64,000 bases of DNA, from positions 96,001-160,000 of the IMG/VR virus record IMGVR_UViG_3300013121_000027, one strand, 5' to 3'. Made by a program: the position numbers and the translations under genes. Below, one piece after another: positions 22,330 to 59,057 of the stretch (position 1 is the stretch's first letter; every line of letters starts with the position of its first letter). This DNA is from a virus (lineage: Duplodnaviria > Caudoviricetes). The notes beneath the pieces are model-generated. The model did no database searches, was not told the DNA's origin, and worked only from the letters and a program-made list of their open reading frames with translations.

Positions 22330-23079
22330 TTATTTTCCATAATTCTCTTGTACATATTTTGGATAGGTCTCATCTATTTCTTGAAACTTTAACGGAAATC
22401 TATCAAATGGATCAACACCATTTTCTATTCTATACAGAATTTTCTCTTGTTCTTTAAATTCATCAAGATTATATTCTGAATGCGCAAATGATTCTATCTT
22501 AGTTTTTATTTTTTCGCAATCACTAAAAAAAGAAAAATGCCAGCCCGCATTAGGCACTCGGGGTACTTGCATAGCTCTAAGCTCTTGCGGGGTTGCGTTC
22601 ATATCATCTATAGTGACAAGTACTGGTCTTGCCCCTTGGTTGCAGTGTTGTGGGACTTTCCAATTAAAATTCCAAAAGAATTGATCTACATCCAGTTGAG
22701 TTCTAAGGCGTTTACCCGGACGACTAAAGAGCTTAATTTTTGAAGCTCTTGGTATTTCATCAACGTCACCTATTATAATGACATCTCTGCCATTAGCGCC
22801 ATGTAACCCTTGCATTATGGCATTGCGCTGAAAAGTTTCTCTCTCCCATGTAGTCATATTTCTGTGGGGAAATCCATCGAGACGCACCCGAATAATCTTA
22901 TCTTTCCATCTATCTATCCAGTTTGGGATATCGTCAAAGTAGAATGGTTTTTCTTTTCCAGTGAACGTTTCTGATGATTCTACTATTACAAAATAATCAG
23001 CTGCTGAATCCATCTCTTCGAGATGAATCCGCAATATTTCTTCTTCATTAAAATAAGTAAAGCAGTCGTAAATTTTCAT
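22330..23079 (-). CDS. glycosyltransferase family 17 (beta-1,4-GlcNAc transferase-like)
   Basis: IYDCFTYFNE..IL..L, FVIVES..TFTG.EKP, WERETFQRN, GDVDEIP, GWHFSF, KIESFAHSEYN. Confidence 0.9.
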   Translation of the reverse strand: MKIYDCFTYFNEEEILRIHLEEMDSAADYFVIVESSETFTGKEKPFYFDDIPNWIDRWKDKIIRVRLDGFPHRNMTTWERETFQRNAIMQGLHGANGRDVIIIGDVDEIPRASKIKLFSRPGKRLRTQLDVDQFFWNFNWKVPQHCNQGARPVLVTIDDMNATPQELRAMQVPRVPNAGWHFSFFSDCEKIKTKIESFAHSEYNLDEFKEQEKILYRIENGVDPFDRFPLKFQEIDETYPKYVQENYGK

Positions 23080-23570
23080 AATTCAATCTTTTGGTATACG
23101 AGAATATTTCTATCTCTTAGAAAGCTATATTGTTTCGTCTGTTTTTCTAAATCTAATCTTTGTTTAAAAATAGCGCTTAAATTTAACCCATCAAGATATG
23201 AATCTATTAAAAGAATTATCCCACCAGACTTCATTAACTCAATAATTTTTATGGTTTCTTCAAACGAATCATATCGTTCGCTAAATAATTTGGGATCATG
23301 TTCAAATGCTATGAATAATTTACAAAAATCATTTCCAAAAAAAGATTCAGTCATAGGATTCCAAAAATGTATAAACTCACTATTTATACTCAGAGCCTCA
23401 TCGCTATTTAAAACCCAAGTCTCAAGACTGTGTTTTGAATTTCGAGCAAATTCCAAGAATGGATAAGCTTTATTATAACATACGATAGAATCTTCGGGAT
23501 TAAAAACATCTCTTATTACGTGGGTAAAAAAATCCCAATTCATATGACCTCGTTTATTTTTTGCGACCAA
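23076..23570 (-). CDS. hypothetical protein, possibly a degenerate methyltransferase fold
   Basis: LMKSGGIILL resembles the post-II motif of class I methyltransferases. It lies in the glycosylation operon. Confidence 0.5.
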   Translation of the reverse strand: MVAKNKRGHMNWDFFTHVIRDVFNPEDSIVCYNKAYPFLEFARNSKHSLETWVLNSDEALSINSEFIHFWNPMTESFFGNDFCKLFIAFEHDPKLFSERYDSFEETIKIIELMKSGGIILLIDSYLDGLNLSAIFKQRLDLEKQTKQYSFLRDRNILVYQKIEL

Positions 23571-24210
23571 TCCACCATAATTGAATAGGACAACGTGGGT
23601 CGTGGTCAGCGTAGAACGGCTGTTTCATAGCTTCTTCCGGTGTATATGTACGCCCACCAAGAACAAGATCCTTATTGTTAGTATACTCCCAACCTACACG
23701 AGCTGCACTTCCCCATGTATCAAATAGTAAAGTTTGCCACATCTCATCGGGAAAAAGTACCTTATATCCATGCGGCATAATACGCCAACAATCCATAGGA
23801 CTTGGATGTACTGGATAAAGTCCGGGCGTTGCCACAATAGCTAATCCACCCGGTTTTAGCACTCTCAAAAAGGTTTCTGCAGCCAACCATGGTCTTTGTA
23901 CGTGCTCCAGAACTTGATCAGCAACAACAATATCTAAACTGTTAGATGGAACTGCATTAAGGTTTTCTGCGTCATATTGCGGATAAGTTCCAAGGATATG
24001 GTTAAGATTTTTACCTAACAAATCCTTAAACATCCAACGCATATAGGTTTGCCAACCCCCATCAGGATCACCAAACCACTCAGAGCCAAAATCTAAAACA
24101 TCATATTTACGATCTTGCCATGGATATTTGCTAAGTACCCCGTAAATCGATTCATACAAAAAATGTCTTAAATGATCTTCCTTACTCCATGTTTTAAATG
24201 TTTCTTCCAT
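23554..24210 (-). CDS. class I SAM-dependent methyltransferase
   Basis: VLDFGS, DIVVADQVLEHV..PW, RVLKPGG, P.HP.P.DCWR. Confidence 0.9.
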   Translation of the reverse strand: MEETFKTWSKEDHLRHFLYESIYGVLSKYPWQDRKYDVLDFGSEWFGDPDGGWQTYMRWMFKDLLGKNLNHILGTYPQYDAENLNAVPSNSLDIVVADQVLEHVQRPWLAAETFLRVLKPGGLAIVATPGLYPVHPSPMDCWRIMPHGYKVLFPDEMWQTLLFDTWGSAARVGWEYTNNKDLVLGGRTYTPEEAMKQPFYADHDPRCPIQLWWIGRKK

Positions 24211-24211
24211 T

Positions 24212-24985
24212 TTAAATCTTTCTTTTTGAACCTAAGAGCGGATATCTTGGTTGGGTCTGAATATATCTTGCAGTTTCCATTACTGTATCAGTGCCTAAAT
24301 GCGTGTGTTCGTTTAGTGGATTACACGCGTTATATAGATACAGGATTTCGTGTATATATCTCGCATGTTGGGGTCCAGCCATTTCTATCATCGGATACAT
24401 AAGAGCTAAATCTGGAGCCATTTGATAAAATTGTCCATCGCGTTTAAAATCTTCGACGTTAATATTATTAAAGAGCCACGTTTTATATGTTCTTAAATGC
24501 GAGAATATAAATGGATACGATCTATCGTGTCGATCATCTGGAGCCTTGCTTAAGAATCCTCGTGGATCAGCATGAGGATCTGGATTTCGCGATTCCATAT
24601 CATATGCGAATGAGCCATAGGTTATCCAAACGTCTGGATCTAAATAGGTATTATCTAATTTTTGTAATACAAGATTACCAGCTAATTCATCATCACCATC
24701 AAGATTAACTATAATTTCATCTTCATTACAAAGCTGAGCCATTTGATAGTGATTAGCTAAAACCCCTATCCTATTTCTATTTCTGCGAATAGATTTTATC
24801 TTATCCTTATTAGGATGATAATAGCATACATCATAAATAATATCCCAAGTTTTATCGCTTGATTGATCATCTACAATGATAACTTCATAATTGTCATAAA
24901 CTTGATTGAGTGCTGAGTTTATTGCTCTTGCTATATATTTTTCAGCATTAAACGTTGGAATGGTGATCACGAACTTATTAGACAT
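24212..24985 (-). CDS. glycosyltransferase family 2
   Basis: IPTFNAEKYI..AINSALNQ, IVDDQSSD, LDGDDEL, SHLRT. Confidence 0.92.
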   Translation of the reverse strand: MSNKFVITIPTFNAEKYIARAINSALNQVYDNYEVIIVDDQSSDKTWDIIYDVCYYHPNKDKIKSIRRNRNRIGVLANHYQMAQLCNEDEIIVNLDGDDELAGNLVLQKLDNTYLDPDVWITYGSFAYDMESRNPDPHADPRGFLSKAPDDRHDRSYPFIFSHLRTYKTWLFNNINVEDFKRDGQFYQMAPDLALMYPMIEMAGPQHARYIHEILYLYNACNPLNEHTHLGTDTVMETARYIQTQPRYPLLGSKRKI

Positions 24986-25652
24986 TTTTTTGCACCTTCT
25001 GTATAAGAAAGATCGCTAATCCGTTCCACCATTCGTCATAATCTCCTACTTTAAAAGCTGGGAGTTCCCATTGATGCAGGACATTTAATTTTTTATTTTG
25101 TAAAGCTTTTTTGGTGCCCTCTTGAACCTTATCCCAATTCCAATCATCTACAAGCAATAAAAATTCTTTAGTCATAACTCTTGTGCCAAGAGCAACTGCT
25201 TCATATTGGGATTCAATTTCATGATCACCATCATAAAAAAGAATATTAAAGCTATTAGCTTTAAGTGATTTTATTGCGTCTTTAAAGTCTAAATCTATAA
25301 GTTGAACTGTGCTGCCTAAAAATTTCTCACAGTTACTATTAAACTCAAGTTTTTCGACACTGCCGTCTTCGGATTCAAATGGGTGCCCAACGTTATCCCA
25401 ATGACCAGAAAAATTATCTATCGCACAAGACGGAATATTATTACCATAAAGTGCAGAAATATGCGTAGAGCCTTTCCATACTCCAACCTCTAAGAACTTT
25501 GCGTCTTGGTTAGAGCATAGATTATTTAGAAGATGCTTTATTTTTTGTGAAGACCAACCCTGGATATCTAAAACATCACTTGGTACTTTTGATTCTAATC
25601 GATTTGATTTTTCAATACAGTCATTAATATATTCAATGGTTAATAAATTCAT
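24978..25652 (-). CDS. class I SAM methyltransferase (Methyltransf_24-like)
   Basis: FLEVGVWKGST, IDNFS, FYDGDH, VDDWNW, WWNG. Confidence 0.88.
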   Translation of the reverse strand: MNLLTIEYINDCIEKSNRLESKVPSDVLDIQGWSSQKIKHLLNNLCSNQDAKFLEVGVWKGSTHISALYGNNIPSCAIDNFSGHWDNVGHPFESEDGSVEKLEFNSNCEKFLGSTVQLIDLDFKDAIKSLKANSFNILFYDGDHEIESQYEAVALGTRVMTKEFLLLVDDWNWDKVQEGTKKALQNKKLNVLHQWELPAFKVGDYDEWWNGLAIFLIQKVQKNV

Positions 25653-25658
25653 TTTTCC

Positions 25659-26690
25659 TCAGTAAGGTTTCATTAAATTGGTTTTCCAATTATATCCATT
25701 ATACCATTCACCAGTTAGATTAAACCATTTATTGATGGCTATATCGCGATCTCTCATATAGGCATTGGGATTATGTTGATGTTCCCAATGCATGTAGTCG
25801 TTTCTTAATGTCCTATGAATAAGGTACCTATTGCCTTTAATGGTTAGGATTTGTTTTCCGGAAAAGGCATCAAGCTGATCCCAATAGGATGTTGCGTCTG
25901 TGCCAATTAAATCTGGTGCTGGATTAATATTAACGCCCTCTTGTAAAGCCCAACGACGCATAAATTCCTCATCGGGTGGCCAATGCTGCATTAGGGAAAC
26001 TGGATCAGTTCCGTATGTCCATCCTTTACCTTTGAAATAAGAAGCCCACTTGTCTCTAAACTGAACGCATCCTAAATGTTCACGAGCTTTAGAAATATCA
26101 CTTCTTGGACCACCTGGATCGTTATGGAAAATACTAATGCCTGGCACTCCAGCCACTCTTAAATCAGACATACGTACGCGTAAAGCCATGTCGCATTCGT
26201 TTTGATGCATAAGCTGAGGGTCATATCCGCCAATTTCATCAAATAGACTTTTACGAATCGCCCAACACATACCTAATCCCCATTTGAGCTCGTCATAATC
26301 CTCATGGTGGATGGCTTCATTATACGAACCCGGCATTGCCATGCCTATTTCTGGACGCATTATATAATTGCGAAGGATTTGGTTCCATCCTGGAGTTTGA
26401 ATAATGCAGTCATCATCTAAATGGATCAGGCAATCACCAACGCCCGCAGCTAACCCCTGGTTTGTTCCGATAGAAAGCCCCTGGTTTGTTTCGTTACGAA
26501 TAACTTGATACTTCTCACTTAATGCAGTCAAATAATTAATCGCTTCTGGATCGGTACTTCCGTTATCTACAATGATAATCTCATATGGTGGTGCGCAAAA
26601 TTGTTCTAAAGCAGTAATGGTTTGGCGTAGAGTATTAACTCTATTCATTGCTAAAACACAAATACTCGTTCCTGTCATTAATAAATCCAT
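25659..26690 (-). CDS. glycosyltransferase family 2
   Basis: EIIIVDNGSTD, NQGLS.G.NQG, HLDDDC, IGGYD. Confidence 0.9.
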   Translation of the reverse strand: MDLLMTGTSICVLAMNRVNTLRQTITALEQFCAPPYEIIIVDNGSTDPEAINYLTALSEKYQVIRNETNQGLSIGTNQGLAAGVGDCLIHLDDDCIIQTPGWNQILRNYIMRPEIGMAMPGSYNEAIHHEDYDELKWGLGMCWAIRKSLFDEIGGYDPQLMHQNECDMALRVRMSDLRVAGVPGISIFHNDPGGPRSDISKAREHLGCVQFRDKWASYFKGKGWTYGTDPVSLMQHWPPDEEFMRRWALQEGVNINPAPDLIGTDATSYWDQLDAFSGKQILTIKGNRYLIHRTLRNDYMHWEHQHNPNAYMRDRDIAINKWFNLTGEWYNGYNWKTNLMKPY

Positions 26691-27622
26691 TCTACTAAAT
26701 CAGCTTTTAATTGTTCCTTATCCATACGCTTAGCTATAAATGAATTGTACTCCGTATAGTGTGCATTGGTTTCTGTTAAGGGCGGACTTGACGGGTTGTA
26801 AATAAAATAACCACGATCTAAATATGTACGAGACATCTCATCTGCGGTGAGTAATCCTTCGTGATGCTTTTCCCCAGGGCGCTCCCCAACAATTTCAATT
26901 TCCGAGTATCCACGCATCACTTCGGCTAATTCCCCAAGAGTGACTGATTCCATTTCTTGTGACACGATTAGACCCGGACCCACACCAGTTAAACAGTATT
27001 CGATAAGGGCGACTGCATCTTCTAACGTAAAAAAGAATCGTGTCATATCAGGATTAGTTATCGGGAGTGTGGCTCCAGCCTCTCTACGCTCTTTCCAAAA
27101 CGGAAGAACTGATCCACGAGTACCTATAACATTACCATATCTGGCTACGTTAAAAATGGTTGTTCCTTTTTTGCCTTGGCGATTACAAGCCTCTAAGAAT
27201 AATTTTTCTAATAGCGCCTTAGTATAGCCATAAGTGTTAACTGGCATGCACGCCTTATCGGTCGAAATACCGACACAGCGTTCAACAGTTTTCTCGTCTA
27301 ATACTGCGTTGACCAAATTAAGCGTTCCCATCACATTTGTAGAGACATATTCTGATGGTTGCAGTTCACTAATATTTACATATTTTAATGACGCGCCATG
27401 TATAACAATATCTATATCTCTAACGGCATCGCGAACCGCCGCATAATCTCTTATATCGCCTAATTTATAGGTATATTCGGGAAATAGTTTCTTCATGTCG
27501 TATTGCTTTTTTTCATCACGACTGAAGATAACAACGTCAGAACCTAATGTTTGAAATCGAGCTGCTAATGCATGACCGAGACTACCAGTCCCACCGGTAA
27601 TTAAAACTTTTTTATACTTCAC
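26678..27622 (-). CDS. NDP-sugar (UDP-GlcNAc) 4,6-dehydratase, PseB/CapE/FnlA-like
   Basis: LITGGTGSLG, FSRDEKKQ, STDKA, YGYTK, RYGNV.GTRGSV, ITNPDMTRF, RPGEK.HE. Confidence 0.93.
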   Translation of the reverse strand: MKYKKVLITGGTGSLGHALAARFQTLGSDVVIFSRDEKKQYDMKKLFPEYTYKLGDIRDYAAVRDAVRDIDIVIHGASLKYVNISELQPSEYVSTNVMGTLNLVNAVLDEKTVERCVGISTDKACMPVNTYGYTKALLEKLFLEACNRQGKKGTTIFNVARYGNVIGTRGSVLPFWKERREAGATLPITNPDMTRFFFTLEDAVALIEYCLTGVGPGLIVSQEMESVTLGELAEVMRGYSEIEIVGERPGEKHHEGLLTADEMSRTYLDRGYFIYNPSSPPLTETNAHYTEYNSFIAKRMDKEQLKADLVEWIY

Positions 27623-28324
27623 TTAATCCTCCCAGGGAAATTGTCTAAGAACTGGATCTGTATCCATGATTGAAATAATGTGCGCATTCGAATGAAATGC
27701 CCCACCATCTATATTCATATATCTGTCGTACTTGGCTTTCTTATCCGCATCTTTGATATAGGAGAGATGCTTCATAACTAACCCACTGTTTTGTAGGTAT
27801 TGACCGTTTCTTACCATAGCCTGAACGTAAGTCGGTTCGGATCCGCAAGCTAACTGTCTCTCTAAGAACTTTCCGCCAGGAAGATATCTAAAGAATCTTG
27901 TGCTTCCATGTGGACGCCATGCCTTATCAACTCTAAATTCTTCTTCATTCCACATGTGATAGAAGTCTATATTGATTACAGGGTAATTATCCTGATTAAC
28001 TAAATCTCTAAGTTCAAATTTAGTCTCGTATAACATCTCATCACAGTCTATAGCCAAAATAAATGCTTCCTGTGTAGGAAGAACACTTTCTAAATTCACC
28101 CATGATTGTTGGCGAATTTTTCCCTCATCGGTGCTGAAGGTTGGCTTGTCCATTTGGAAAACTTTTGCGCCAAACGACTCAGCGATATTGGGGGTATCGT
28201 CATCTGAGCAGTCGTCAGTAAAGATGATCATGTCAACTTGAGACTTAAGCCTATTTAGGACCGGCTTTAAATAGCTGTCGGCTTCGTTTCTGCCGATCAT
28301 ATTTGCGATAATTTGTCTTTTCAT
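27623..28324 (-). CDS. glycosyltransferase family 2-like
   Basis: GRNEAD, TDDCSDD and IDCDE (DxD). The start is moved to MKRQII, downstream of the terminator. Confidence 0.8.
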   Translation of the reverse strand: MKRQIIANMIGRNEADSYLKPVLNRLKSQVDMIIFTDDCSDDDTPNIAESFGAKVFQMDKPTFSTDEGKIRQQSWVNLESVLPTQEAFILAIDCDEMLYETKFELRDLVNQDNYPVINIDFYHMWNEEEFRVDKAWRPHGSTRFFRYLPGGKFLERQLACGSEPTYVQAMVRNGQYLQNSGLVMKHLSYIKDADKKAKYDRYMNIDGGAFHSNAHIISIMDTDPVLRQFPWED

Positions 28325-28339
28325 TTTATCTCCAAAAGA

Positions 28340-28376
28340 AAGAGAAAAGGGGACCCCCACCGAAGTAGGAGTCCCC
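28340..28376 (-). terminator. intrinsic terminator
   Basis: On the - strand: GGGGACTCCTAC-TTCG-GTGGGGGTCCCC followed by TTTTCTCTTT. Confidence 0.85.
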
Positions 28377-30560: not shown

Positions 30561-31394
30561 TCATTGTTTTGGCGAAATGAATAATTCGCTCTTAGCTCTG
30601 GCTGTTGTTATAGTGTAGTTCACGGGCACTTCTTCTATATTAGCCCAATCATACATCTCTTTAATCTCTGAACAACTATCATACGACAAAAGCCAATGAG
30701 AATCAACCTTTTTTAAAGAATTTGCTAATCTAGCATGATCATCTTTTGAGAATGAAAATTGATATAAATCAGAACCCTTATCGAAGTAAGGTGGATCTAC
30801 ATAGATAAAAGTATTTTGTGTAGCGTTTGTATCAATTACTTTTTCAAAATCAGTAGCAAATAAATAAGTATTGTATGGCGCAAGTAACGCATGATCTTTG
30901 TATATTTTTTTCGCCATGGAGTCTGGAGACCATCTACAACCTATATCGTATTTCGAATTCTGTTTGGCACCACCAATTGGTCCACCAGCTTTAACTCCCA
31001 ATCCGGAATATGACATCTGGTGCAAGGCAATCTTTTTAAAAGCTATAGAATCAAACGATTCATTTGTATAACTACAACTTTCAAGTTCTTTCTTAAACGT
31101 GTAGAAAGCTTCAGTGGATGGAACAAAATCTTTTATTCTATCGACAAGTAGTTTAGGTTCATGGTAAACAGTTCTCCAAATGCAATGAATTGCAAAGTCG
31201 GTATCATTTGCTACAACAGTTTGAAGATCTGGAAAAACATTCTCTTTAAGCGCAGCAAAACAAATACTTCCACCGCCAAAGAATGGTTCCATATATCTAT
31301 GAATTAATTTATCTTTTGTGATTTCTTTAATTTTTTGGATGATGGGCTTGCTAAGTTTAGCCTTACCGCCTGGATATCTAAAGAACGACATCAA
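30561..31394 (-). CDS. DNA adenine methyltransferase (Dam/D12 family)
   Basis: FRYPGGK, YMEPFFGGGS, YVDPPY, WLLSYD. Confidence 0.93.
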   Translation of the reverse strand: MMSFFRYPGGKAKLSKPIIQKIKEITKDKLIHRYMEPFFGGGSICFAALKENVFPDLQTVVANDTDFAIHCIWRTVYHEPKLLVDRIKDFVPSTEAFYTFKKELESCSYTNESFDSIAFKKIALHQMSYSGLGVKAGGPIGGAKQNSKYDIGCRWSPDSMAKKIYKDHALLAPYNTYLFATDFEKVIDTNATQNTFIYVDPPYFDKGSDLYQFSFSKDDHARLANSLKKVDSHWLLSYDSCSEIKEMYDWANIEEVPVNYTITTARAKSELFISPKQ

Positions 31395-32206
31395 TTACAC
31401 TCGTGAGGAATTCCCAACGCTTCGCACGTTTGGATATACATTTGTCTACTTGTTTGAAATAAATTTTGTAACTTTTCATTGTGAGATCCTGTTGACGCAT
31501 TCCACGTATGTCCAGCCGTATCAACCGTTCCATCGTACCATACTTCGTACCCTAAATGTTGTACTAATTGAGAATAAAAAGTCTCTTCAAAATACATTGG
31601 AGTAGGGAGCCATGCACCTCTCAAGTTTGGATACAGCGTCTTAAATGGCTCATATTCGGCTACCTCATCCCAAACATTTCTACGCATATAATATATAGAA
31701 CCAGAGACAGTCCAACAGGGTACTCTATCCTTGTAAGATGCATCAAATGGATCCTTCATCGACCAACCCCTATGGATTGGATTCTTAACTCCATCCCAAA
31801 AGATTCCGCCATGTCGAATTAATTTATTTTCATCCATCTGCTTAACACCAATAACCGCAGCGTTGGGTGTCTTATGAAAGGACTCTATTACTTGTTTTAC
31901 ATGGCTTGTTGTAAACCATGTATCAGCATTGACAGCACAGAGGAATTCGCTATTGGATCCAGCTTTAGATAAGGCTACCAAATTATTGATAGCGGCTGAA
32001 TAACCTATATTTTCATTAAAGCCAAAATATTTCAAATTATACTTGTGAAAATTTTCCGTTAACCATTCTCTTGTACCGTCAGTAGATGCGTTGTCTGAAA
32101 TGTAAATATTCCAAACGCCTGGTTCATAATCGCTATGTAGCGTATCAAGAAGTCTCTCCAGTAATTTCTTCGTGTTGTAGTTCACGATCAAAAGATCCAC
32201 TGCCAT
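31391..32206 (-). CDS. glycosyltransferase family 2
   Basis: IVNYNT, DNASTDG, NIGYSAAIN, NADT, VSGS, MYFEET. Confidence 0.9.
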   Translation of the reverse strand: MAVDLLIVNYNTKKLLERLLDTLHSDYEPGVWNIYISDNASTDGTREWLTENFHKYNLKYFGFNENIGYSAAINNLVALSKAGSNSEFLCAVNADTWFTTSHVKQVIESFHKTPNAAVIGVKQMDENKLIRHGGIFWDGVKNPIHRGWSMKDPFDASYKDRVPCWTVSGSIYYMRRNVWDEVAEYEPFKTLYPNLRGAWLPTPMYFEETFYSQLVQHLGYEVWYDGTVDTAGHTWNASTGSHNEKLQNLFQTSRQMYIQTCEALGIPHECN

Positions 32207-42572: not shown

Positions 42573-44552
42573 TTAGTCTCTTTTAATTATTTTTAGTTTA
42601 TAAGAATGAACTATTGGGGTGGCAGTTTGTTGATCGCTTGGTCTATCTATTTCTATTTTAACCCTTAAAGAGTTAACGGTTCCCTTTATATCATAATATC
42701 CAACCCCTGGATCTCTTAGATCACTTGGGGTAGGGTCGTTAAAAGCTATAATTTCTGGAATGTTTAAGAAATCGTCTTGAATTCTGGAGATTTGATACCA
42801 ACTCTTTCCATCATCTGGACTAATATAAAACTTAATCCAAGGCTCTGAAGAATCATAGCCGTTGGGTATAGATATATCTGCCTCTATCGAAACTCTATCT
42901 ATAATGCCAGGTATATTAAATTTTCTTGAGACAATAATACCCTTTGTATTGTATATATTTTTACCAACTTGTATATCACGAATACCAATAGCCCATCTTT
43001 TACCTTTAAAGTATTCTCTCTTTTGGACTAAATCACCCCAATCCAAATACCCTTGCGGATTACTAACCGAAGGATTCGGACCTAATCTTCTGAAACTTAA
43101 ATCATTTACATAGGAAGCAGATACAGTATTCCCTACACCGGCACCAGATCCAAGAATAGAACCACCACTATTAGACCCTACTGGATCTGGCGAGGGCGCC
43201 TCTTCAGTTCCAGAGTAGGCGATTGGGGAATCGTATGGAATACTTGCGTCATATGTCTCTGACGGTAAATTATAAACTGGATAATCTACAATATAGTTTG
43301 GGATATTGCCGGTATTGACGTTTGGATCATTAACTACATAATAGGTATGTCCTATATTACAATCTATTGGTTTTGGTTGTTCTATATTAAACCTAACATA
43401 TCTCACCATAGATCCTTCAGTTAGAAAAACCGCCGAACCGATTAATACTCTTTCGGTGTTAAGATTAGATATTTGTCTATTGATACTATTAGAAATCCAA
43501 ACATTTTCCGGACTTACCAAGTCCCAATTAGTTTTATCTACAGATGTTAAAATCTGAGTTATTTTAATGGGGTTATTAATATTGTCAGAAAGTCCAAATG
43601 GTATAAGGCTTATGTTATTTACTTGCTGCGCAGCTCCAAGATCTAACTCAAAACTTAATCTTAATATATTATCGACTAATCCATCAGCCCAATTGATAAG
43701 AGTACCAGATGTGCCATTCGAATCTCTCAAATATTTATCCATATCATCATTATTTAAAACATAATCAAAATTAAAGTTTCCAGCTAATCCACGTGCGACT
43801 TTACTTATGAAGTATTTTTCAAATTCAAACCAAGTATTTGGTTTTTGATCCAAAATATGATCAAGTTTTGCGTGACGATCAGTTTCTGCTTTGAATTGAT
43901 ATAATTTCTGTCCAGTAATCGGATTATATAATGCTGTCTGTGGGTCTAAAATTTCTTGATTATTACCCATTAACCCATTAGAACCATTCAATATGGTAAT
44001 CGTTGAAGTGGCAGTCAAACTAGAAGAGGTCGAGTTTATTTTTAAACAAACATTTCCGCTACCGACAAGAGAAGCTCTATTGTCTGGATGAACTAAATCC
44101 CAATCTATAAAGTCTTCTGTTATAAATCCATCGCCAAAATATATAAGAGATTTATTATCTACACTTGAATACATTTCAAGAGTTTTTATTTTGTTTTGAA
44201 GTTTTGTATTTTGCCCCATTGCCTTTAATACTTCGGTTTTCACAAAGTTATGAGAAAAGACAACTGAGGCATTAAGTAGATCTATTTGATCTTGTAAAAG
44301 ATTAACGTCATCCTGTACAGAAGCCCAAAAAGTATTCATCTTAGATGAAAGAGGAATCTCAGAAATGACCACTGGATCATAATTCGTTAATGCTTTACCA
44401 GCATGTAAATTGAACTTATTGAGGGTCTCATTTATAGTCTCTGAAATTTCTTGCGGTGTCTGATTTTTACTTGTGCTATACGCTTGTTGCATTTTTTTTA
44501 TTAATTGAATGGCTTGCGTATACAGCATTCGCGAAGGTGATTCTTGAGCCAT
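42573..44552 (-). CDS. virion structural protein (paralog family)
   Basis: 659 aa with a C-terminal LRVKIEI...ATPIVHSY. Confidence 0.75.
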   Translation of the reverse strand: MAQESPSRMLYTQAIQLIKKMQQAYSTSKNQTPQEISETINETLNKFNLHAGKALTNYDPVVISEIPLSSKMNTFWASVQDDVNLLQDQIDLLNASVVFSHNFVKTEVLKAMGQNTKLQNKIKTLEMYSSVDNKSLIYFGDGFITEDFIDWDLVHPDNRASLVGSGNVCLKINSTSSSLTATSTITILNGSNGLMGNNQEILDPQTALYNPITGQKLYQFKAETDRHAKLDHILDQKPNTWFEFEKYFISKVARGLAGNFNFDYVLNNDDMDKYLRDSNGTSGTLINWADGLVDNILRLSFELDLGAAQQVNNISLIPFGLSDNINNPIKITQILTSVDKTNWDLVSPENVWISNSINRQISNLNTERVLIGSAVFLTEGSMVRYVRFNIEQPKPIDCNIGHTYYVVNDPNVNTGNIPNYIVDYPVYNLPSETYDASIPYDSPIAYSGTEEAPSPDPVGSNSGGSILGSGAGVGNTVSASYVNDLSFRRLGPNPSVSNPQGYLDWGDLVQKREYFKGKRWAIGIRDIQVGKNIYNTKGIIVSRKFNIPGIIDRVSIEADISIPNGYDSSEPWIKFYISPDDGKSWYQISRIQDDFLNIPEIIAFNDPTPSDLRDPGVGYYDIKGTVNSLRVKIEIDRPSDQQTATPIVHSYKLKIIKRD

Positions 44553-53000: not shown

Positions 53001-53364
53001 ACCTACTCGCATGCAAAAAGGGTAAAGCCACATCCAAAACATAATCGGATTCTTTTACATTGGAAGGATCATCCATATTAAAGACGTCACCAACTATTGG
53101 ATATTCCTCTTCCCAAACTTGATTGCCATTTTCATCTTCAAGAACACCAAGAGCATTAGCATAGGCTATCTTGACTTTATTCTGTTCCGAGTTGTTAACA
53201 GAAAATGCGGCTTGTGAAGTATCAACTATGACGATATTATTCTCTGGATTAACTTTAGGTGGTTGTACCCACGCTAAGTTTACAGCCCCCTCCGGAACTA
53301 TTTGCCCACGCCTTAAAGCTTGTTCGATATTATCATCGGCTATATTTTCAAATCGTTTTGTCAT
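47035..53364 (-). CDS. large tail/baseplate protein with a LamG-like lectin insert and a peptidoglycan-binding domain
   Basis: 2109 aa. SPDHASLNIDTDLEIVCRVALDNW...LHIGS is ConA/LamG-like. VDGVYGSKTAAAVTKFQ...DGIVDAETW is PG_binding_1-like. Confidence 0.8.
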   Translation of the reverse strand: MTKRFENIADDNIEQALRRGQIVPEGAVNLAWVQPPKVNPENNIVIVDTSQAAFSVNNSEQNKVKIAYANALGVLEDENGNQVWEEEYPIVGDVFNMDDPSNVKESDYVLDVALPFLHASRYFHLDFTGLAFGSLIEYLGNLVKVIDKNGSDFVDENEKKKYKIFIVEPNGVQVDPDSRNSVYRIHVFLHVDAITEDLFLVYNKTEITINGNLKNFEEGFKEKINPINYFKYIPEETDVVDQANINEKIFSSKPYSKKQNLLGTSTVNSNGWKYFVPRKAVPDPRVFQLFRWRMACEITRPRVQENTGTNTVSQEPTFIRVGVVVPPGGDHLSTRANFFFHQLNISDFNFTKIQFVNPLHETYDYSNVVGFTKTQAAYWHVDIGSITLDQLSNFDILLWAPSAESIDISPYLPKINYFVEQLGKTFILETSSSCDLSGLTDFEFSETLQTSLIDPLNVTDMVSASTLRIYDATIDNQDDTFGAFGMWENWPPNVSDIINSYTDTGSILSDADVIAGWSLTDQEKEESLSAYQNIADVSFQFIKSYDSAAFRPVLEALNTDSDKTYIRTERIDGTQLTSPDHASLNIDTDLEIVCRVALDNWIYGENQGLIGKSWTTSGEYQYALLVDGDGKLNLWWSTNGTAISTSLSSVVPFSDGQTYWIKVTLDIANGSDRVITFKYAADQDTEPTTWTTLTTNTTNGVTSIYLSGTGGLHIGSYANGAYSTAGKLFNAIIRDGIDGTTVLNADFTALDPDETITDTTGKVITIHGSCSIEKSYTQAYHKTALHKRFNGGGNLFISTSCLFEDHLFDVNGNMASRSLQLSDINLLNSSYLRNLKAMVSSAANACEMKLRLNTMLYSTINKAGPDFNNNTIGTNNSNTQSVTVYSDWKTSWVIDPSNGILAEDEKIKYNFALLPVKSTDVEPTWQRILSDKTAKQIIQEEINRLDPNHTNDLFNSFTGATKRYFIVITNPLVQTLTTDLINDNSIPTAWTKAYSPAFNIPFHLGSYVVRDEMVSGIGPGSGQRVYPTKPYQLQANVSHIDSSIGDTTVTFSLTGRAIRSVTVEESTTTTQVWVPPTADTFSDVVLHWNTDGANRYETKYKHQDGYPKPVGMDTWTSANYYNTLPNNWAYPGIHGFLHAGSSSTTYTITPSTPYPSGYRPVWSYGSRWVMLKNSSGLLLTDTSGNFVKGELPLYHGVIPYEVSFTTNDAGLPIIRTSTSISAVSYYKNYTIDQVFPNGFGQLPTFTATTNSTASSSGQLVKVVQQILNYVIFFGDIAGPGLQVDGVYGSKTAAAVTKFQTYMGARYIDGIVDAETWSLLGYKLIAISNIPGFNDPLLLSYANNAKKFMMLNSLSDDLPETFYCKQSWEHNGPGQIREAFLIKFNERFPIYRISILPYTLDTVTNNLSIDWVDIAERDSLYGYDFSRGFPGNIIGKSGGDGQWINIDVPQTTTNSIIFRAFQSGPAGWGSARFIGIRDVAVYGKKFFPGAAGYYRDVTVTVPGRTYQERVDLSFSATVNFKYGVPQIFSPALALQSSDGSALSNIKWDIHSLDIQPSSTGAFFDVEFIDAQEETEDGQSTILNKLKLTYKGYQSVLSSENFVNGVMIGNGSNGFYTKNTSGAIEQYEKYYGWIKKDDGLRLICDSSGKPFGFPSALPDNVTTSTHFARYKLNAFGTDQTIYYGFYDIQTGEFLVNTFGEPEVSYYDYVRRGPQNIFIAVKTIYELDSSVNVPGNIDSIMRPFRWAMPVYSITSGRQSTIKIEPMSKGLTKTDLWSLPIKTGFFTRDIQLRLRDNGSYTNYLKNYQGTTVKAFYSVPEAKNEAWSSKYGRPYLDIKGETPTIVDESTIKISQYPFLISQVPTNNNSEADPYLPVFTVYRRSSASSPWVELVFSDIKDFDSKNGTITLNSPLSNLDPKLIKVDYTSDKKVYNFKGDAQTKINFNPFLSKNSDFVNKPLYIYLLPESVFDNAGVLISDSIRTRTVNFTSDDSIFNPSRVDFDPTALLIGIVHISTSSDINDLIILDTRKRGGGLSTAFSLSDMTTIQPEAESYWDIISDKAVSYQKGGFVIIRLPAELRDDFTYQQIKDVIERNITIGVAYQIEDLDGNRWVE

Positions 53365-53366
53365 GA

Positions 53367-56300
53367 TTAAAATTCCTTATAATCAGGATATTGTGGCGTA
53401 GCAGCTATAGAATCGTAAGTCGTTCCCAATATACCCATTTGGTACTGGGTATACTTGTCTATCGCATACCAGGAGGGTGGAGTCCAAATAATAACATCCT
53501 CATTTAACCCTGGTTCTAAAACCAGTTCATCATATGTTGTTGGGAAAGCGGGAGTCGCAGTATATTCTGGAAGATTCCAATAAGGAGTAGATGACTGTTC
53601 GGTACCAAGTGGTAGTCCAGAAATAAGATCTATACTATTAGTAACATCCGGATACTCATACCAATACACTAAATCACCAATTGTGGTAAAAGTTCCAGAT
53701 GGTGAAGCCGATTCGGATTCTGTTGATACAAACCAATATCCCGGAGTATCAGATGGATTAAATGGTCCAATTGAGAATCTACCATTTTGATCCGCTACAA
53801 CTCGTCCGTGTATACCGTCTAATCCTGGAGTCGCAGAAGAAGTATCCCAATCTATATTAAAAACTTCATATATAGTTCTTCCTTTACGCCAATATACATA
53901 AGCATTACTAACAGCATCGTGACCACTTGTGGTTACTTTGCCGTAAACGAAATTAGCATTTTCTGGATCGGCTAAAATATAATCTGAATCTGGTATCGCA
54001 TAAATACTATATGTTTCCGTCGGTATGACTTCAATATCAAATTTCGCAGTAGTAGAAAAATCCCCTTCAACCAGAATAATTCCCTGATCTAAAGTTCCAG
54101 GAGTAGCAGGTGCCAATGCTGGAGTAGAGGGGTAAGCCGGTGTGGCTGGGGTCCAAATATTTGATTGAAGTGTAAATGCGGTAAACCCATTATTATCCGT
54201 TATAACCACATCGTCTGACAAAGATCCAAAGTTAGTAAAAACATTTAGAGATTGGTAGGGTTTTGGATTGCCATTTATATCTGTTGTTTTGACAGTGACT
54301 ATGGCATAATCAATTCCATCGGACACTATTTTTGTTGGACTTATAGAGATATCAATTCTGTCAAGATCATAAATATCGTGATCTATATAGATAAATCCAT
54401 CATCTATAAATGTCTCGTTTGGATTAAGCTCAATATCGGCTGGTGTAGCTGGATCATAAATGGAAACCTCATATTCTATCCTATAGTAATCTGCCCCAAT
54501 TTCTCCAGGTGGTCTATCAAAAAAGACTTTTGTTTTATTTAAACCATCACTATCTACAAAATCATTATCTATATAGTATGAATAATTAGGAATATAATTG
54601 ACGTCATATTCATGAATTGAAATTGTTGGCGTTGCCAACTGTATCTCGTTGGATAATGTATAATTGGCAATCAATCCAAGAGATGAATTCGTGGTCGTAT
54701 CTACGATTGTTATATCTCTTATATCTTGGTATGAAGCTTTAAGCGCAGCCGTGTCATTCCCTGTTATTCTTTCTGTATTATCAATAGATAAAAGTGGTGT
54801 AGCGCTGTCGTAATTAAAGAATGAGGTTTGTCTAAGTTCAGCTATTGGCGTAGCACCATCTATAGCTTTAATTATAATAGGAGCACCTTGTCTGTTAAGA
54901 TCTGAAAGAACTTTATAAGATCCGGTAGCTTGTTCTGTATTTGGACTCGCATATAAATAATACTCATCCGTATCATCGTAAAACCATCCAGAATGGAGCT
55001 TTGGATTCCATTTCTGATTTATATTTGGTCTTAATCTACAAAAAATACGTAAAGTACTTAAATTATAAGTCAGTGTATCTGGATCATAGATCTCTATATT
55101 GACTGTGGATGGATACTGAACGGACAAATCAGTTTCTCCATAGTCCACAACGGCAGGTTTTATTGTGTTGGTTTCAAGCCAAACTATAACATTTGGTTCA
55201 TCAACGCTCTCAACACCAATCCATGTTAAGATATAATCTTCGGTTTCTGGAATATTGAAATCTGCTCTTGTTAATTCAAGATTGTCTAATAGATAGTCGC
55301 TACTATTAAAGTCTTGAGTTTTTCCATTTCTCCATGGTCCACTGGCATCTACGGTTCCACTTATTGGAGTTACGATAGAGCTTTCAAAGATCTCCCATAC
55401 ACCAATGTTAACTGGATAAGCTGCGCCTGACGTAGTAGAAAAGGTTAAGGATGTTGTTCCCGCGCTAAATGTCTTGTAATAATCGTCTGTCCAGGTAGTA
55501 TTTCCGTCTACAGCTATATATGTATTGGGTATAAAAATAGGAGTTGAAGCCACAGCATCAGAATATGCCCCAAACGTAGTAAGATTATAATTTGTTATAA
55601 AATCTACTTTGATAAGCCTTGAGCTTGTTGATGCTGGCCAGACAAAATTTGGAAGAGTTAGAACATAATCCTGAGCAGTCATGTCAGGCATTACGCCATT
55701 TAATGTTATATTATACGTATATTTTTCCGTTTGCCATGTATCAGGCGTTGCACCTAAATAATTTGTACTATGGCTTTCAAACCAAAATGCACCAAAGTGG
55801 TTCCACCAGGTATATGGACTCTTGGTTAATGAAGTTCCACCATCAAGCCCCATAATTGTACCTGGTTCGCCATCAAACCATGCCTTATAATCACTCTGTG
55901 TTGGAGCATTCATATAAGCTGGCGTTGCCGCATCTCCATTAAAGTGTCCTGGATAAATATTAACAGCTGATACTAACGGAAGTGGAATTTGAGACCCATA
56001 ACTAACACCGGTTGATTTATTTTTAAAATCAAATCCGATATCTGTATATCCATCTGGAGTGGTCCATTCTATTAGGGCACGAGAGGCTGGCGATGGTGTT
56101 GGCGTATAGTAATCCACATCACTTTTGGCGGTGGCGGTAACATTACAGTAGAAGGTATGTTGAGTTGGTGAAGCTCCATCTTCATAAACTGATAACTCGA
56201 TTGTAAAATATCCCTGCAAAACAGGATTATCCCAAACGGCATTTGCAGCCGTACCATAAATCTGGACAGCAAACGATAGCGGAATATGTTCTGATCGTAA

Positions 56301-57890
56301 AGTCTTTTTACGTCCCTTTATCTTTAAAGTTGTATTAAAATCATACTTATTTTGCACTTCGCGCGGTCTAAATACATAAAGATCATTACCATCACCAACG
56401 CCAGATTCAAGATACTCTTGTGACACTGGCGTAGCATCTAATTGCCTTGGTAGTGTGTCAAATCCCTTATGTCCATTAAAACCATCAGCATCCCAGAAGG
56501 CATTTCCGTATTTGAAAAATCCCCAAGTCATAGGATATTTAATTGCCAATTCTTGAACCAGATCTTTAAATTTTTGAGTTGGGATACCATCAACAAAGAA
56601 GTCTTCATCATTTTCTATATCGGATATTTCTATGACTTCAGGAGTAGCCCCAAGGAAAGCGGAATCCGGAGTCGCGTTTGAATATCTCCAAAGGTTCAAT
56701 TCTCGTCTTAAAGTTTTCTTAAATAATTCTTTACTAACGCCCGGGTTATTTATATAAACATCTAAAATCCTCTTCCTAAAAGAATCATTATCTTCTAGAT
56801 ACCCATTAGGGGTTGCACTTTGAATCCTAAAGAGATCAACAGAGACACCAAGATCATCAAGCCCATTCCAAATATGATATGGCTTTTGATATACTTTAGT
56901 TCCGTTTATTAAAAGTTCGTCATATAAAATATTAGTAAATATTTCATCTGTAGCCCTAGACCAATAACATGCATTGTCGTCATCTTGTGATGCGTAAAAT
57001 TCCTCAACGCTTGAGGTCTTAGCTAACGATATACCATCACCAGTTATAGACCAAACAATATCTGGTACGCCCTGTGTAATATAAATCCAAGCTTTTTGAT
57101 CTAAATCAACTGTATCGATATAATATTGATATTCCTGATACTTTATTTTTTGAGTAAGATCAGTAAGCCACTCTCCAGCAATAGCATTTAAAAACTCTCC
57201 ACCTACTGAGATTGGTGTTGCTTTATCTTCTTTAAGGGGATCGTCTGGATCATGCTCACGAAGTGCCATCCATTGTGGAAATTTATCTTGTATTTTTTTT
57301 GTTGATGCGAAATATCCATTTGTTACAGGTGGATCTATCTCTACAGCAATAATCATCTCTATAGATTTGCCGTCTACAAGGATAGTCGAATCTAAATCAA
57401 AAATAAGTTCAAAGAACGCATACCTGGACGATTCAATATTGAAAACATTTCTTCCCAAGATGATATTTTCTTGAACGGACCAATCACTTACCATTGATGG
57501 GGTGGCATGAAGATAATAAGGAGTGGAATCAGAAAAGTCGGAGGTGTAAACCGAGAGTTTACTTCCAACAGCCGACGAGATTGAGGCATCGAATGATACC
57601 TTCCAGTCCATAATATCGATTCTGGCTGACGTATCTACGAACCTTCCAGAATCTACAAAACCAATTTCCGATTCAGTTGCAGATAACTGATTTAATCCAG
57701 TATAAACGCCATTATTTAAAAGGTTAGTCCCAAAACCAATCCTTTTAACTGTATAGTTTTTGTATTGTGAATTAAAGTATAGATCGAAAACGTCCGTACG
57801 CCAAGTATACCTCGTATTGGTATCGTCTAAGATATCGGATGTCTTACTGACGAAATCATTTTCAGTAAAACGCAGATGATAAAGTTTCAT
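53367..57890 (-). CDS. large baseplate/tail protein with an Ig-like region and 17 Ala-Thr-Pro motifs
   Basis: 1507 aa, directly downstream of baseplate J. EDNDSFRKRILDV is wedge-like and IVSDGIDYAIVTVKTTDINGNP is Big_1-like. Confidence 0.8.
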   Translation of the reverse strand: MKLYHLRFTENDFVSKTSDILDDTNTRYTWRTDVFDLYFNSQYKNYTVKRIGFGTNLLNNGVYTGLNQLSATESEIGFVDSGRFVDTSARIDIMDWKVSFDASISSAVGSKLSVYTSDFSDSTPYYLHATPSMVSDWSVQENIILGRNVFNIESSRYAFFELIFDLDSTILVDGKSIEMIIAVEIDPPVTNGYFASTKKIQDKFPQWMALREHDPDDPLKEDKATPISVGGEFLNAIAGEWLTDLTQKIKYQEYQYYIDTVDLDQKAWIYITQGVPDIVWSITGDGISLAKTSSVEEFYASQDDDNACYWSRATDEIFTNILYDELLINGTKVYQKPYHIWNGLDDLGVSVDLFRIQSATPNGYLEDNDSFRKRILDVYINNPGVSKELFKKTLRRELNLWRYSNATPDSAFLGATPEVIEISDIENDEDFFVDGIPTQKFKDLVQELAIKYPMTWGFFKYGNAFWDADGFNGHKGFDTLPRQLDATPVSQEYLESGVGDGNDLYVFRPREVQNKYDFNTTLKIKGRKKTLRSEHIPLSFAVQIYGTAANAVWDNPVLQGYFTIELSVYEDGASPTQHTFYCNVTATAKSDVDYYTPTPSPASRALIEWTTPDGYTDIGFDFKNKSTGVSYGSQIPLPLVSAVNIYPGHFNGDAATPAYMNAPTQSDYKAWFDGEPGTIMGLDGGTSLTKSPYTWWNHFGAFWFESHSTNYLGATPDTWQTEKYTYNITLNGVMPDMTAQDYVLTLPNFVWPASTSSRLIKVDFITNYNLTTFGAYSDAVASTPIFIPNTYIAVDGNTTWTDDYYKTFSAGTTSLTFSTTSGAAYPVNIGVWEIFESSIVTPISGTVDASGPWRNGKTQDFNSSDYLLDNLELTRADFNIPETEDYILTWIGVESVDEPNVIVWLETNTIKPAVVDYGETDLSVQYPSTVNIEIYDPDTLTYNLSTLRIFCRLRPNINQKWNPKLHSGWFYDDTDEYYLYASPNTEQATGSYKVLSDLNRQGAPIIIKAIDGATPIAELRQTSFFNYDSATPLLSIDNTERITGNDTAALKASYQDIRDITIVDTTTNSSLGLIANYTLSNEIQLATPTISIHEYDVNYIPNYSYYIDNDFVDSDGLNKTKVFFDRPPGEIGADYYRIEYEVSIYDPATPADIELNPNETFIDDGFIYIDHDIYDLDRIDISISPTKIVSDGIDYAIVTVKTTDINGNPKPYQSLNVFTNFGSLSDDVVITDNNGFTAFTLQSNIWTPATPAYPSTPALAPATPGTLDQGIILVEGDFSTTAKFDIEVIPTETYSIYAIPDSDYILADPENANFVYGKVTTSGHDAVSNAYVYWRKGRTIYEVFNIDWDTSSATPGLDGIHGRVVADQNGRFSIGPFNPSDTPGYWFVSTESESASPSGTFTTIGDLVYWYEYPDVTNSIDLISGLPLGTEQSSTPYWNLPEYTATPAFPTTYDELVLEPGLNEDVIIWTPPSWYAIDKYTQYQMGILGTTYDSIAATPQYPDYKEF

Positions 57891-57905: not shown

Positions 57906-59057
57906 TTAAGAAAGAGCGACACCAACAACTATATCGCCAGGGATAATTTGTTCATCATAAGCTGGTTTATAATTGCGTCTTGTAAGTTCGCTACCATTAA
58001 TAGAAAATCTTTTAACTATGACATCTTTTATAATACTTGTCGATTCTAATATTGTTGATATAAGTCTATTATATACTAATTGCTCCCCTGGCATCAAGGA
58101 ATTAAGATATCTTACAATGCCAACATTTGCTCTTTGTATTGCGTTCTCGGTAATTTGATTATTTCCAGCCATTGGAATAATTAAATCTACAGAGATATCA
58201 ACTGGTTTAGTTGTGGGAAGACGAACAAACATTCTTGTTCCAAGTGGACGAACAGATTCCATCGCTGCTGTAACTTGCGATGAAACTTGCTTTGTGTTAA
58301 CATTCCTCTCCGGTACGACTATAGCCTCAAATGATCCCATACCATAAGGCGTTTGACCGATGGAAATATCTCTGACTCCGGCTACGCTTAATGCTGCAAA
58401 TCTGACAGCTTGGACAGTTCCACTTGCGTTGACTCTTATTTGCTTTATGATCCTTGCTCTATAAGAATCATCTTCTTCGTAATTAATCAATTGAGAAATC
58501 GTTTTTGGATTAGTGCAAAAAACAGTGGCTCCGGGAGGAGAAGCGAAGTCGTGAAGAATAAGAGAATTTGGAGCCGCAGTGAATACTGAATCGCTAAAGT
58601 TTGGAATTAATCCAGTGTAAGCTACTTTCCTTCCCATAAGAATAGTAGTTTCTTCCTGCGTTTTATATGAAAATGTTCTGCCTATATATGTTGTAGCATC
58701 GGTGTAAACATTGGTTCCACTTGGGATTTTGATATCGAATGGCGCAGGGGTTTGAGTGAAAAATATAAACGCTCCAAGTTTTTTATCTATGATTGCTAAA
58801 TCGTTTATAGTCTTTCTTGTAACCCCATAAAGAGAACCAAATAAATCAAGTGCTGCGCCGGTGGCGGTAGATAATATGTTCTGATTTAGATTATAATCTA
58901 ATATATCATACATGTCACCAAGCTCTGTCGTTATAGCCTCTGTTATTGCTCGCGCGACAGATCCTGGATTCGTTGCGGAAATAGAGGAAGATAAAGATAT
59001 TTTTCTTAGTGCTTGAGATAAAATATCTGCATTATTCTTTTTTAGGTATCCTGGCAT
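57906..59057 (-). CDS. baseplate J-like wedge protein
   Basis: PGSVARAI, ATGAALDLFG..YGVTRK, EEDDSYRARI, GVRD. Confidence 0.88.
   Translation of the reverse strand: MPGYLKKNNADILSQALRKISLSSSISATNPGSVARAITEAITTELGDMYDILDYNLNQNILSTATGAALDLFGSLYGVTRKTINDLAIIDKKLGAFIFFTQTPAPFDIKIPSGTNVYTDATTYIGRTFSYKTQEETTILMGRKVAYTGLIPNFSDSVFTAAPNSLILHDFASPPGATVFCTNPKTISQLINYEEDDSYRARIIKQIRVNASGTVQAVRFAALSVAGVRDISIGQTPYGMGSFEAIVVPERNVNTKQVSSQVTAAMESVRPLGTRMFVRLPTTKPVDISVDLIIPMAGNNQITENAIQRANVGIVRYLNSLMPGEQLVYNRLISTILESTSIIKDVIVKRFSINGSELTRRNYKPAYDEQIIPGDIVVGVALS

Follow-up and report, generated by a model that had tools for sequence, protein, structure and literature searches.

Results

P0001 and its setting

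The window, a 64,000-nucleotide stretch covering positions 96,001 to 160,000 of the virus record IMGVR_UViG_3300013121_000027, encodes a 1507-amino-acid (aa) protein, P0001, in which the tripeptide Ala-Thr-Pro (ATP) occurs 17 times. It also encodes two soluble enzymes of glycosyltransferase (GT) family 2, GT2c and GT2d, which are candidates for reading that motif (Table 1). The source genome is a complete record of 231 kb with direct terminal repeats and 38% GC, from an uncultured phage that only metagenomes have yielded. A DNA similarity search against cultured phages gave no match, and tblastn returned only weak partial matches to Bacillus and Moorella jumbo phages. Seven related genomes were fetched whole, and their open reading frames (ORFs) were called and clustered with those of the source genome, giving eight genomes in total. 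ORFs were called by the longest-ORF rule with translation table 11; an amber-suppressor transfer RNA could alter a few small genes, none of which was among those analyzed.

The P0001 gene lies directly downstream of a Baseplate_J gene, which belongs to phrog_6 (baseplate wedge subunit) and is a core gene present in 8/8 genomes. The same gene order was found in Bacillus phage KLEB27-3, where the P0001 homologue is annotated as a "structural protein". AlphaFold2 (AF2) models of P0001, built from homologue alignments with predicted local distance difference test (pLDDT) scores of 84 and 81.5, predicted an N-terminal jelly-roll, a helical core, several beta-sandwich domains, and flexible linkers. 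The jelly-roll of residues 1-189 resembled phage tail and baseplate chains in a weak and generic manner (VIA-align Z 6.9-8.5), and a Big_1 immunoglobulin (Ig)-like domain at residues 1179-1244 scored below the Pfam cut-off. Foldseek with the model of residues 1-800 gave no match at E<=0.001, and a PDB sequence search with P0001 gave nothing usable. We read P0001 as an outer baseplate or fibre-network protein of a myovirus.

Table 1. Features of the window and the 17 ATP sites of P0001. STP, Ser-Thr-Pro; ASP, Ala-Ser-Pro. Homologue counts per site refer to alignment A1 (n=77), alignment A2 (n=47), or a rough alignment (n=121). Outgroup, Bacillus jumbo phages.
Feature	Position	Strand	Remarks
P0001	53367..57890	minus	1507 aa, read as an outer baseplate/fibre-network protein; 17 ATP, 4 STP, 3 ASP
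Baseplate_J wedge protein (T4 gp6 / P2 gpJ-like)	57906..59057	minus	upstream neighbour of P0001; PF04865, 62.8 bits
Site 1, residue 129, HATPS	57498..57506	minus	GCC ACC CCA; predicted coil; insertion present in 26/77 homologues, motif-bearing in 23 of those
Site 2, residue 224, KATPI	57213..57221	minus	coil, 3 residues ahead of helix 229-255; 47/77; deleted in Bacillus phage homologues
Site 3, residue 359, SATPN	56808..56816	minus	coil; lineage-specific loop, deleted in Bacillus phage homologues
Site 4, residue 406, NATPD	56667..56675	minus	[AS]TP in 71/77 (A1) and 114/121 (rough alignment); replaced in outgroup, KLEB27-3 having NEFA there
Site 5, residue 415, GATPE	56640..56648	minus	75/77; A415 and P417 invariant, T416 kept in at least 90% of A1; not ATP in outgroup
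Site 6, residue 486, DATPV	56427..56435	minus	low-confidence loop 454-530; 55/77; replaced in outgroup
Site 7, residue 655, AATPA	55920..55928	minus	loop just ahead of strand 658-660; motif cluster in 26/77, over 6 columns
Site 8, residue 714, GATPD	55743..55751	minus	predicted in strand (1 of only 2 such motif sites); 17/77
Site 9, residue 1013, GATPI	54846..54854	minus	turn at strand start; 33/47
Site 10, residue 1030, SATPL	54795..54803	minus	loop ahead of strand; 38/47
Site 11, residue 1086, LATPT	54627..54635	minus	coil after strand; rare in family
Site 12, residue 1148, PATPA	54441..54449	minus	46/47; T and P invariant, A in at least 90% of A2; flexible loop, model residues 368-383, pLDDT <50
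Site 13, residue 1249, PATPA	54138..54146	minus	first of three motifs in Pro/Thr/Ala-rich linker after Ig-like domain
Site 14, residue 1262, PATPG	54099..54107	minus	same linker as site 13; motif in 15/23 sequences with the segment
Site 15, residue 1353, SATPG	53826..53834	minus	coil; 34/47
Site 16, residue 1445, TATPA	53550..53558	minus	C-terminal coil region; 14/47
Site 17, residue 1497, AATPQ	53394..53402	minus	coil, eleven residues from C-terminus; 28/47
GT2c, soluble GT2 glycosyltransferase	27623..28360	minus	245 aa; PF00535, 25.1 bits (cut-off 23.3)
GT2d, soluble GT2 glycosyltransferase	31391..32206	minus	271 aa; PF00535, 55.7 bits (cut-off 23.3)
Variable glycan cassette abutting GT2c	22330..27622	minus	GT17-like, three methyltransferase-type genes, two GT2, Polysacc_synt_2
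GT17-like gene	22330-23079		cassette; Pfam
Cassette GT2 genes	24212-24985 and 25659-26690		Pfam PF00535
Polysacc_synt_2 (PseB/CapD-like) NDP-sugar 4,6-dehydratase	26678-27622		cassette; Pfam

The ATP motif in P0001

The original prediction, made from the window alone, had listed 17 ATP tripeptides in P0001 together with 4 STP and 3 ASP, and had estimated that fewer than one ATP would arise by chance. Recounting returned the same numbers with every listed context correct, and the composition of P0001 gave an expectation of 0.52 ATP (Poisson tail 2.7e-20). Among 20,000 shuffled P0001 sequences, the maximum number of ATP was 5. ATP was by far the top tripeptide of the protein, the runner-up being TPA (n=6), which overlaps ATP. 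The codons varied as had been claimed: the five quoted triplets were correct, and all 17 sites read GCN-ACN-CCN with varying third bases. The DNA word GCNACNCC occurred 17 times in the P0001 gene, always in frame 0 and never in the other frames or on the opposite strand, indicating that selection acts on the peptide. A DNA-level signal was ruled out by this frame-0-only, one-strand occurrence. Readings in which the enrichment arises by chance, from amino-acid composition, or from a DNA-level signal (for instance a word for restriction or methylation) would have to account for these statistics and for an enrichment that persists in homologues of 27-30% identity from source genomes of 36-48% GC, and their probability is negligible.

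Nor did the motif recur in the register of a repeated domain. BLASTP self-comparison of P0001 at E<=1 gave the identity match only, and the motif spacings were irregular, from 9 to 299 residues. In the absence of an internal repeat, the motif is not part of a repeated domain, and this source was ruled out.

The adjacent 2109-aa protein contained 0 ATP, and single ATP copies were present at 40041-40394, 42573-44552, and 7215-8033, both as originally reported. This 2109-aa neighbour (47035-53364, minus strand) has a PG_binding_1 domain at residues 1256-1319 and endolysin-like PHROG matches, and is probably a virion component directed at the cell wall. Three genes downstream of its P0001 homologue, KLEB27-3 encodes a large LysM "structural protein".

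The motif across the P0001 family

Homologues of P0001 numbered 142 at E<=0.001, down to 27% identity, of which 120 were retrieved and analyzed. ATP was the commonest tripeptide in nearly all of these 120, with 7-21 copies each, and STP partly took its place in distant homologues. Over the 121 family members, ATP was seen 1547 times versus 49.8 expected (31x), while STP was enriched 7.8x and ASP 3.6x. Other xTP, AxP, and ATx tripeptides were mostly at or below expectation, with the exceptions of AHP (3.3x), WTP (2.6x), and ATV (2.5x). Lys/Arg were about 10-fold depleted at position -3 and were also depleted after the motif, and Gly/Ser were enriched at -2. These enrichments and flank biases define the unit as [A>S]-[T>S]-P set among small residues without charge, and the tolerance of Ser beside the preferred Thr points to the hydroxyl as the functional group.

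The sites in alignments A1 and A2 formed about 8 clusters present in at least 70% of sequences, 24 present in 20-70%, and 46 rare ones. The motif was spread over 177 alignment columns, and single loops used 9-16 alternative columns, yet the number per protein stayed at about 20. This turnover at a steady count indicates that selection holds the motif within a loop but not always at an exact position. Turnover of sites across homologues, which the original prediction had proposed to check, was thus observed: most sites shift between neighbouring columns, and the roughly 8 frequent clusters are near-universal. Its claim of a short linear signal at the protein level was borne out by the in-frame occurrence, the 31-fold family enrichment, the conserved tripeptides amid variable flanks, and the turnover. 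Accordingly, we regard [AS]-T-P as very probably a short linear motif that is read in trans.

Some members of the P0001 family (P0003, P0004, P0056, P0058, and others) were 1800-2190 aa long with different or extra C-terminal parts, and query coverage in these was only 40-67%. Their make-up suggests that a conserved N-terminal part may anchor the family to the baseplate, with a distal module that faces the receptor and can be exchanged.

Exposure of the P0001 sites was judged from predicted secondary structure. Of the [AS][ST]P sites, 22/24 lay in predicted coil, compared with a coil background of 61.5% (P = 0.001). Many sites were located 0-7 residues ahead of a strand or helix, and others in the linker, in low-confidence loops, or in the C-terminal tail. 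Placement ahead of strands and helices would also be expected of a purely structural motif that no enzyme or partner reads and that favours capped loops or turns in beta-rich tail proteins through its small residue, Thr cap, and Pro; N-caps are commonly formed by Ser/Thr with Pro next in the chain. The near-invariant sites at residues 415-417 and 1148-1150 favour such an element as well. The outgroup speaks otherwise. The Bacillus jumbo phages Edson and KLEB27-3 have P0001 homologues of 536 aa and 590 aa, respectively, with 24-29% identity over query residues 196-549; these occupy the same position after Baseplate_J and contain 0 and 1 [AS]TP. Pairwise alignment showed each of the five query sites that fall within the shared core (224, 359, 406, 415, and 486) to be deleted or replaced in both homologues, indicating that the shared core fold does not need the motif sites. 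A capping role also explains neither why Ala/Ser is required at -1 nor why Lys/Arg are excluded about 10-fold at -3, and it sits poorly with sites that mostly move between neighbouring columns and with a motif that occurs in unrelated folds and at chain ends but not in non-virion proteins or in two large proteins of 2109 aa and 2158 aa. We therefore consider a purely structural motif improbable.

The motif in other virion proteins

A 1618-aa tail-fibre protein of the same genome, which showed no BLAST similarity to P0001, contained 11 ATP, 2 STP, and 2 ASP, and a 590-aa protein next to it contained 3 ATP and 2 ASP. The P0001 family had 19.3 [AS]TP per protein across the eight genomes. In the tail sheath, column 202 carried the motif in 7/8 genomes with varying flanks (DPATPGD, TGSTPNS, SPATPSD, TGATPNA). 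A 235-aa core virion protein (genome positions 183690-184397) had two conserved motif sites, one of them in the last five residues, and the proteins of 259 aa and 264 aa encoded on either side of the major head protein gene carried the motif in conserved columns with variable flanks. When the eight genomes were pooled, virion-side orthogroups contained 162 ATP versus 23 expected, whereas the replication/early side contained 6 versus 10.6 expected. No motif enrichment was found in the 2109-aa peptidoglycan-binding protein or the 2158-aa core protein, and the major head protein was not notably enriched, with 4 motifs in 8 orthologues versus 1.3 expected.

This distribution bears on a further explanation, in which the motif marks cleavage sites of a maturation protease. 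Phage maturation proteases typically go together with short motifs conserved in virion proteins, and the head module has a weak match to a head maturation protease PHROG (E 7.7e-4). Around 20 cuts, however, would shred a conserved structural protein of 1500 aa, and sites 3-5 residues from a C-terminus would give no meaningful product. Sheath and fibre carriers are moreover not known protease substrates, and the head protein lacks notable enrichment. Cleavage is thus a very improbable function of the motif.

The 259-aa and 264-aa proteins (G000:C1:193044-195792, flanking the head protein gene at 193933-194973) have no PHROG family and contain one to three [AS]TP sites each, kept in all eight genomes. 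Both may decorate the head or act in the manner of a scaffold. Another of the related records, G005, is labelled "linear" and contains, close to each of its two ends (156-2844 and 207533-210221), ORFs of matching length (256 aa and 638 aa) with the same motif contexts; these ORF lengths and motif contexts suggest that the record is terminally redundant by several kb or was assembled in circularly permuted form.

Candidate enzymes

The window holds four PF00535 genes and one GT17-like gene, so that phage-encoded glycosyltransferases are present, and all ten related large records contain 2-4 GT2 genes each. Among sugar-related genes, only GT2c (about 50% identity among orthologues) and GT2d (about 43%, range 37-45%) were core in 8/8 genomes. 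GT2d was always located about 1-7 kb from GT2c, and both lie in a syntenic core block where they bracket a variable slot. Each cassette gene of the slot was found in only 1 or 4 of the eight genomes. In genome G001 the slot contains two GT-B enzymes, a GT47-like protein, an FkbM methyltransferase, and a GT2, and in G004 a PF11397 N-acetylglucosamine (GlcNAc) transferase and a GT25. The slot looks like a hypervariable "serotype" island within an otherwise syntenic core block. No transmembrane segments were found in any of the GTs. The slot (22330-32206) sometimes also holds DNA methyltransferases, namely Dam at 30561-31394 here and a C5-cytosine methylase in G004.

GT2c has an invariant D105-C-D107, which corresponds to the DxD motif, and GT2d has invariant D38, N39, D43, N93, and D95. 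The best PDB match of the GT2c profile was GmaR (PDB 22ao; E 1.9e-8, next match 3e-5), the cytoplasmic GT2-family flagellin O-GlcNAc transferase of Listeria monocytogenes. GmaR doubles as the MogR anti-repressor (PMC9638930, PMC3150276). The match spans GT2c positions 3-110 only and falls short of full-length similarity. The GT2d profile matched generic GT2 enzymes. GT2c has 711 relatives in the protein database, and its nearest Atlas clusters are 82-100% viral; in a search beyond the clade, the best 80 loci and 120 proteins were all at about 47-61% identity and virus-specific. No GT2c or PF00535 genes were found in the complete genomes of Edson and KLEB27-3. Motif enrichment therefore co-occurs with GT genes, as the original prediction expected: homologues from GT-less phages are motif-poor, not motif-rich.

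Instead of a glycosyltransferase, the reader could be a host or phage Ser/Thr kinase, a prolyl isomerase, a chaperone of fibre assembly, a partner that docks at the motif (for instance a decoration protein), or the phage's core ubiquitin-like conjugation system, which would then modify Thr. Whatever speaks for a reader in trans counts equally for these. Proline-directed kinases and Pin1-type isomerases classically recognize sites built around Thr-Pro. The 47 core genes were covered by Pfam scans on 37 and PHROG scans on 16, with two core genes crossing locus boundaries left out; among those scanned, the only other protein-modifying signatures were of a JAB/ThiF ubiquitin-like system. Its Prok-JAB and ThiF/E1-like genes (G000:C1:65048-67754) are core in all eight genomes, which makes this system a clade hallmark rather than an accessory, and favours it as a reader. 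Many core genes without a Pfam family could likewise include a reader that escaped recognition. An AAA+ ATPase (L240:8934-10547) is core too.

Each of these readers meets difficulties of its own. The normal target of ubiquitin-like conjugation is Lys, which is depleted near the motif, and the depletion of Lys/Arg after the motif is unlike [ST]-P-x-[KR] kinase sites. The sole kinase-like ORF, of 364 aa (G000:C1:17080-18174, plus strand), matched PF00069 below the cut-off (E 1.8e-6, 24.2 bits, cut-off 31.7) and had no homologue in the seven related genomes, whereas the motif is clade-wide; a phage kinase was rejected as the reader because this gene is not conserved. Docking or chaperone binding would be unusual with about 20 sites per chain, some of them at the extreme C-termini of small proteins. 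A reader other than a glycosyltransferase would also leave the conserved GT2 pair and the variable cassette without an acceptor. Taken together, such a reader is conceivable but rather unlikely. A hydroxyproline-type modification of [AST]-Pro was also considered and set aside, as PF13640, the only 2OG-Fe(II) prolyl hydroxylase family searched, had no match in the complete genome at E<=0.1.

Discussion

We lean, if only slightly, towards reading [AS]-T-P as a candidate sequon for Thr O-glycosylation by the phage's own enzymes, on the basis of the sequence features described above. The original prediction had proposed such a sequon. Its enzymatic side fits the core GT2 pair beside a variable cassette, and this soluble pair would be the simplest choice of reader; that something is attached to the motif, that the attached group is a sugar, and which enzyme starts the reaction are points that we infer.

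In this glycosylation scheme, the sequon would be displayed in loops, linkers, and termini of outward-facing proteins, namely the baseplate protein, the fibres, the sheath, and the small head-adjacent proteins. In the cytoplasm of the infected cell, a soluble GT2 enzyme would recognize the turn formed by a small residue, Thr, and Pro, and would add the first sugar to the Thr hydroxyl. The candidate for this initiating step is GT2c, possibly together with GT2d. The genome-specific cassette of GTs, sugar methyltransferases, and a nucleoside diphosphate (NDP)-sugar dehydratase would then extend the first sugar to a lineage-specific glycan. The outcome would be about 20 glycans per 1507-aa protein and a glycan coat on the tail apparatus. 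In its widest form, the proposal is that a widespread clade of uncultured jumbo phages from fresh water has a self-encoded, cytoplasmic, sequon-directed O-glycosylation, in which [A/S]-T-P on all virion proteins that face outward would be recognized by the GT2 pair and the hypervariable cassette would give each lineage its "serotype"; we judge this form to have an even chance of being right.

Several observations weigh against the glycosylation reading. The co-occurrence of motif and GT genes is a single phylogenetic contrast between one clade with both and one outgroup with neither, and no independent second lineage was available because the GT2c search gave close relatives only. The likeness of GT2c to GmaR is confined to the nucleotide-binding half of about 110 residues, which is common to all GT-A enzymes, and GT2c is without the C-terminal part of GmaR. 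The core GT2 genes have genes of DNA metabolism as neighbours (DnaB-like helicase, ThyX, nucleases), so that DNA or another acceptor is possible; a ThyA-type hydroxymethylase was not found in a non-exhaustive search of the genome, which speaks against DNA. The invariant sites and the site in a predicted strand would also fit a structural role, and the coil result is weak evidence because Pro tripeptides favour coil in any protein. Non-virion proteins were not significantly motif-depleted (P = 0.10), and there was no clear signal of avoidance. As to the gene neighbourhood, the core replication block (11796-21076 and 33062-33808, minus strand) encodes a DnaE-type Pol III alpha of 1112 aa, a DnaB-like helicase, an HD-domain protein, and ThyX.

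The glycosylation of phage particles is, to our knowledge, described in few cultured phages, and we know of no sequence rule defined for its attachment sites. In the literature on Thr-Pro and Ala-Thr-Pro motifs in phage proteins and on glycosylated sheath and fibre proteins, no published phage-particle sequon of this kind was found. The motif offers an exact rule that can be tested (small residue, Thr, Pro) and comes with two candidates for the initiating enzyme, and the Bacillus phage homologues, free of motif and GTs, provide a ready negative control. If the glycosylation reading is true, phage virion glycosylation would gain its first defined sequon, and glycosylated virion proteins would become predictable from metagenome sequence. 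Large environmental phages would then coat their host-recognition apparatus with lineage-specific glycans, with a bearing on host range, on resistance to proteases, grazing, and defence systems, and on particle stability. A compact three-residue tag with a soluble enzyme would also be transplantable for cytoplasmic glycoprotein engineering.

Comparison with known systems

Mycobacteriophages are reported to have O-glycosylated virions modified by phage-encoded glycosyltransferases, with glycans said to be located on the C-terminal parts of capsid and tail-tube subunits of siphoviruses. The present system would be similar in that soluble GTs encoded by the phage would modify its structural proteins within the cytoplasm of the host, and in that GT content varies among relatives. 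It differs in having about 20 dispersed candidate [AS]TP sites per chain on the baseplate, fibre, and sheath of a jumbo myovirus, and in being known from sequence alone. We are aware of no three-residue sequon defined for mycobacteriophage virion glycosylation. The reference for O-glycosylation of these virions by phage-encoded enzymes is Freeman et al. 2023 (Cell Host Microbe 31:1216), cited in PMC12582341.

GT2c shares its family with GmaR, and GmaR O-glycosylates Ser/Thr of an exported or assembled structural protein in the cytoplasm. In contrast to GmaR, which is larger and has a further C-terminal region, GT2c has 245 aa and matches only the N-terminal nucleotide-binding half. No ATP-type sequon of GmaR is known to us.

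The mucin-type N-acetylgalactosamine (GalNAc) transferases (GT27, GT-A fold) prefer Thr over Ser, Pro at +1, and small residues nearby, and disfavour charge, and their sites lie in exposed loops and in Pro/Thr/Ala-rich linkers. The phage motif resembles mucin-type O-glycosylation in its Thr preference, its Pro at +1, its small uncharged context, and its linker placement. Unlike the proposed phage system, mucin-type O-glycosylation is eukaryotic, takes place in the Golgi lumen, and follows statistical preferences without a strict sequon.

The general O-glycosylation system of Bacteroidota uses the sequon D-[ST]-[AILVMT]. As there, the phage system would combine a three-residue sequon spread over unrelated proteins with one initiating system and lineage-variable glycan clusters. 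The Bacteroidota system works with lipid-linked glycans and membrane oligosaccharyltransferases in the periplasm, whereas the phage has another motif and soluble enzymes, and neither a flippase nor an oligosaccharyltransferase is evident. The giant viruses (Mimivirus and chloroviruses) infect eukaryotes and modify other acceptor proteins, with no common sequon known to us. Even so, they resemble the jumbo-phage clade in having their own clade-variable glycan clusters, including 4,6-dehydratases and methyltransferases, whose products coat the outer virion, as is proposed for the phage.

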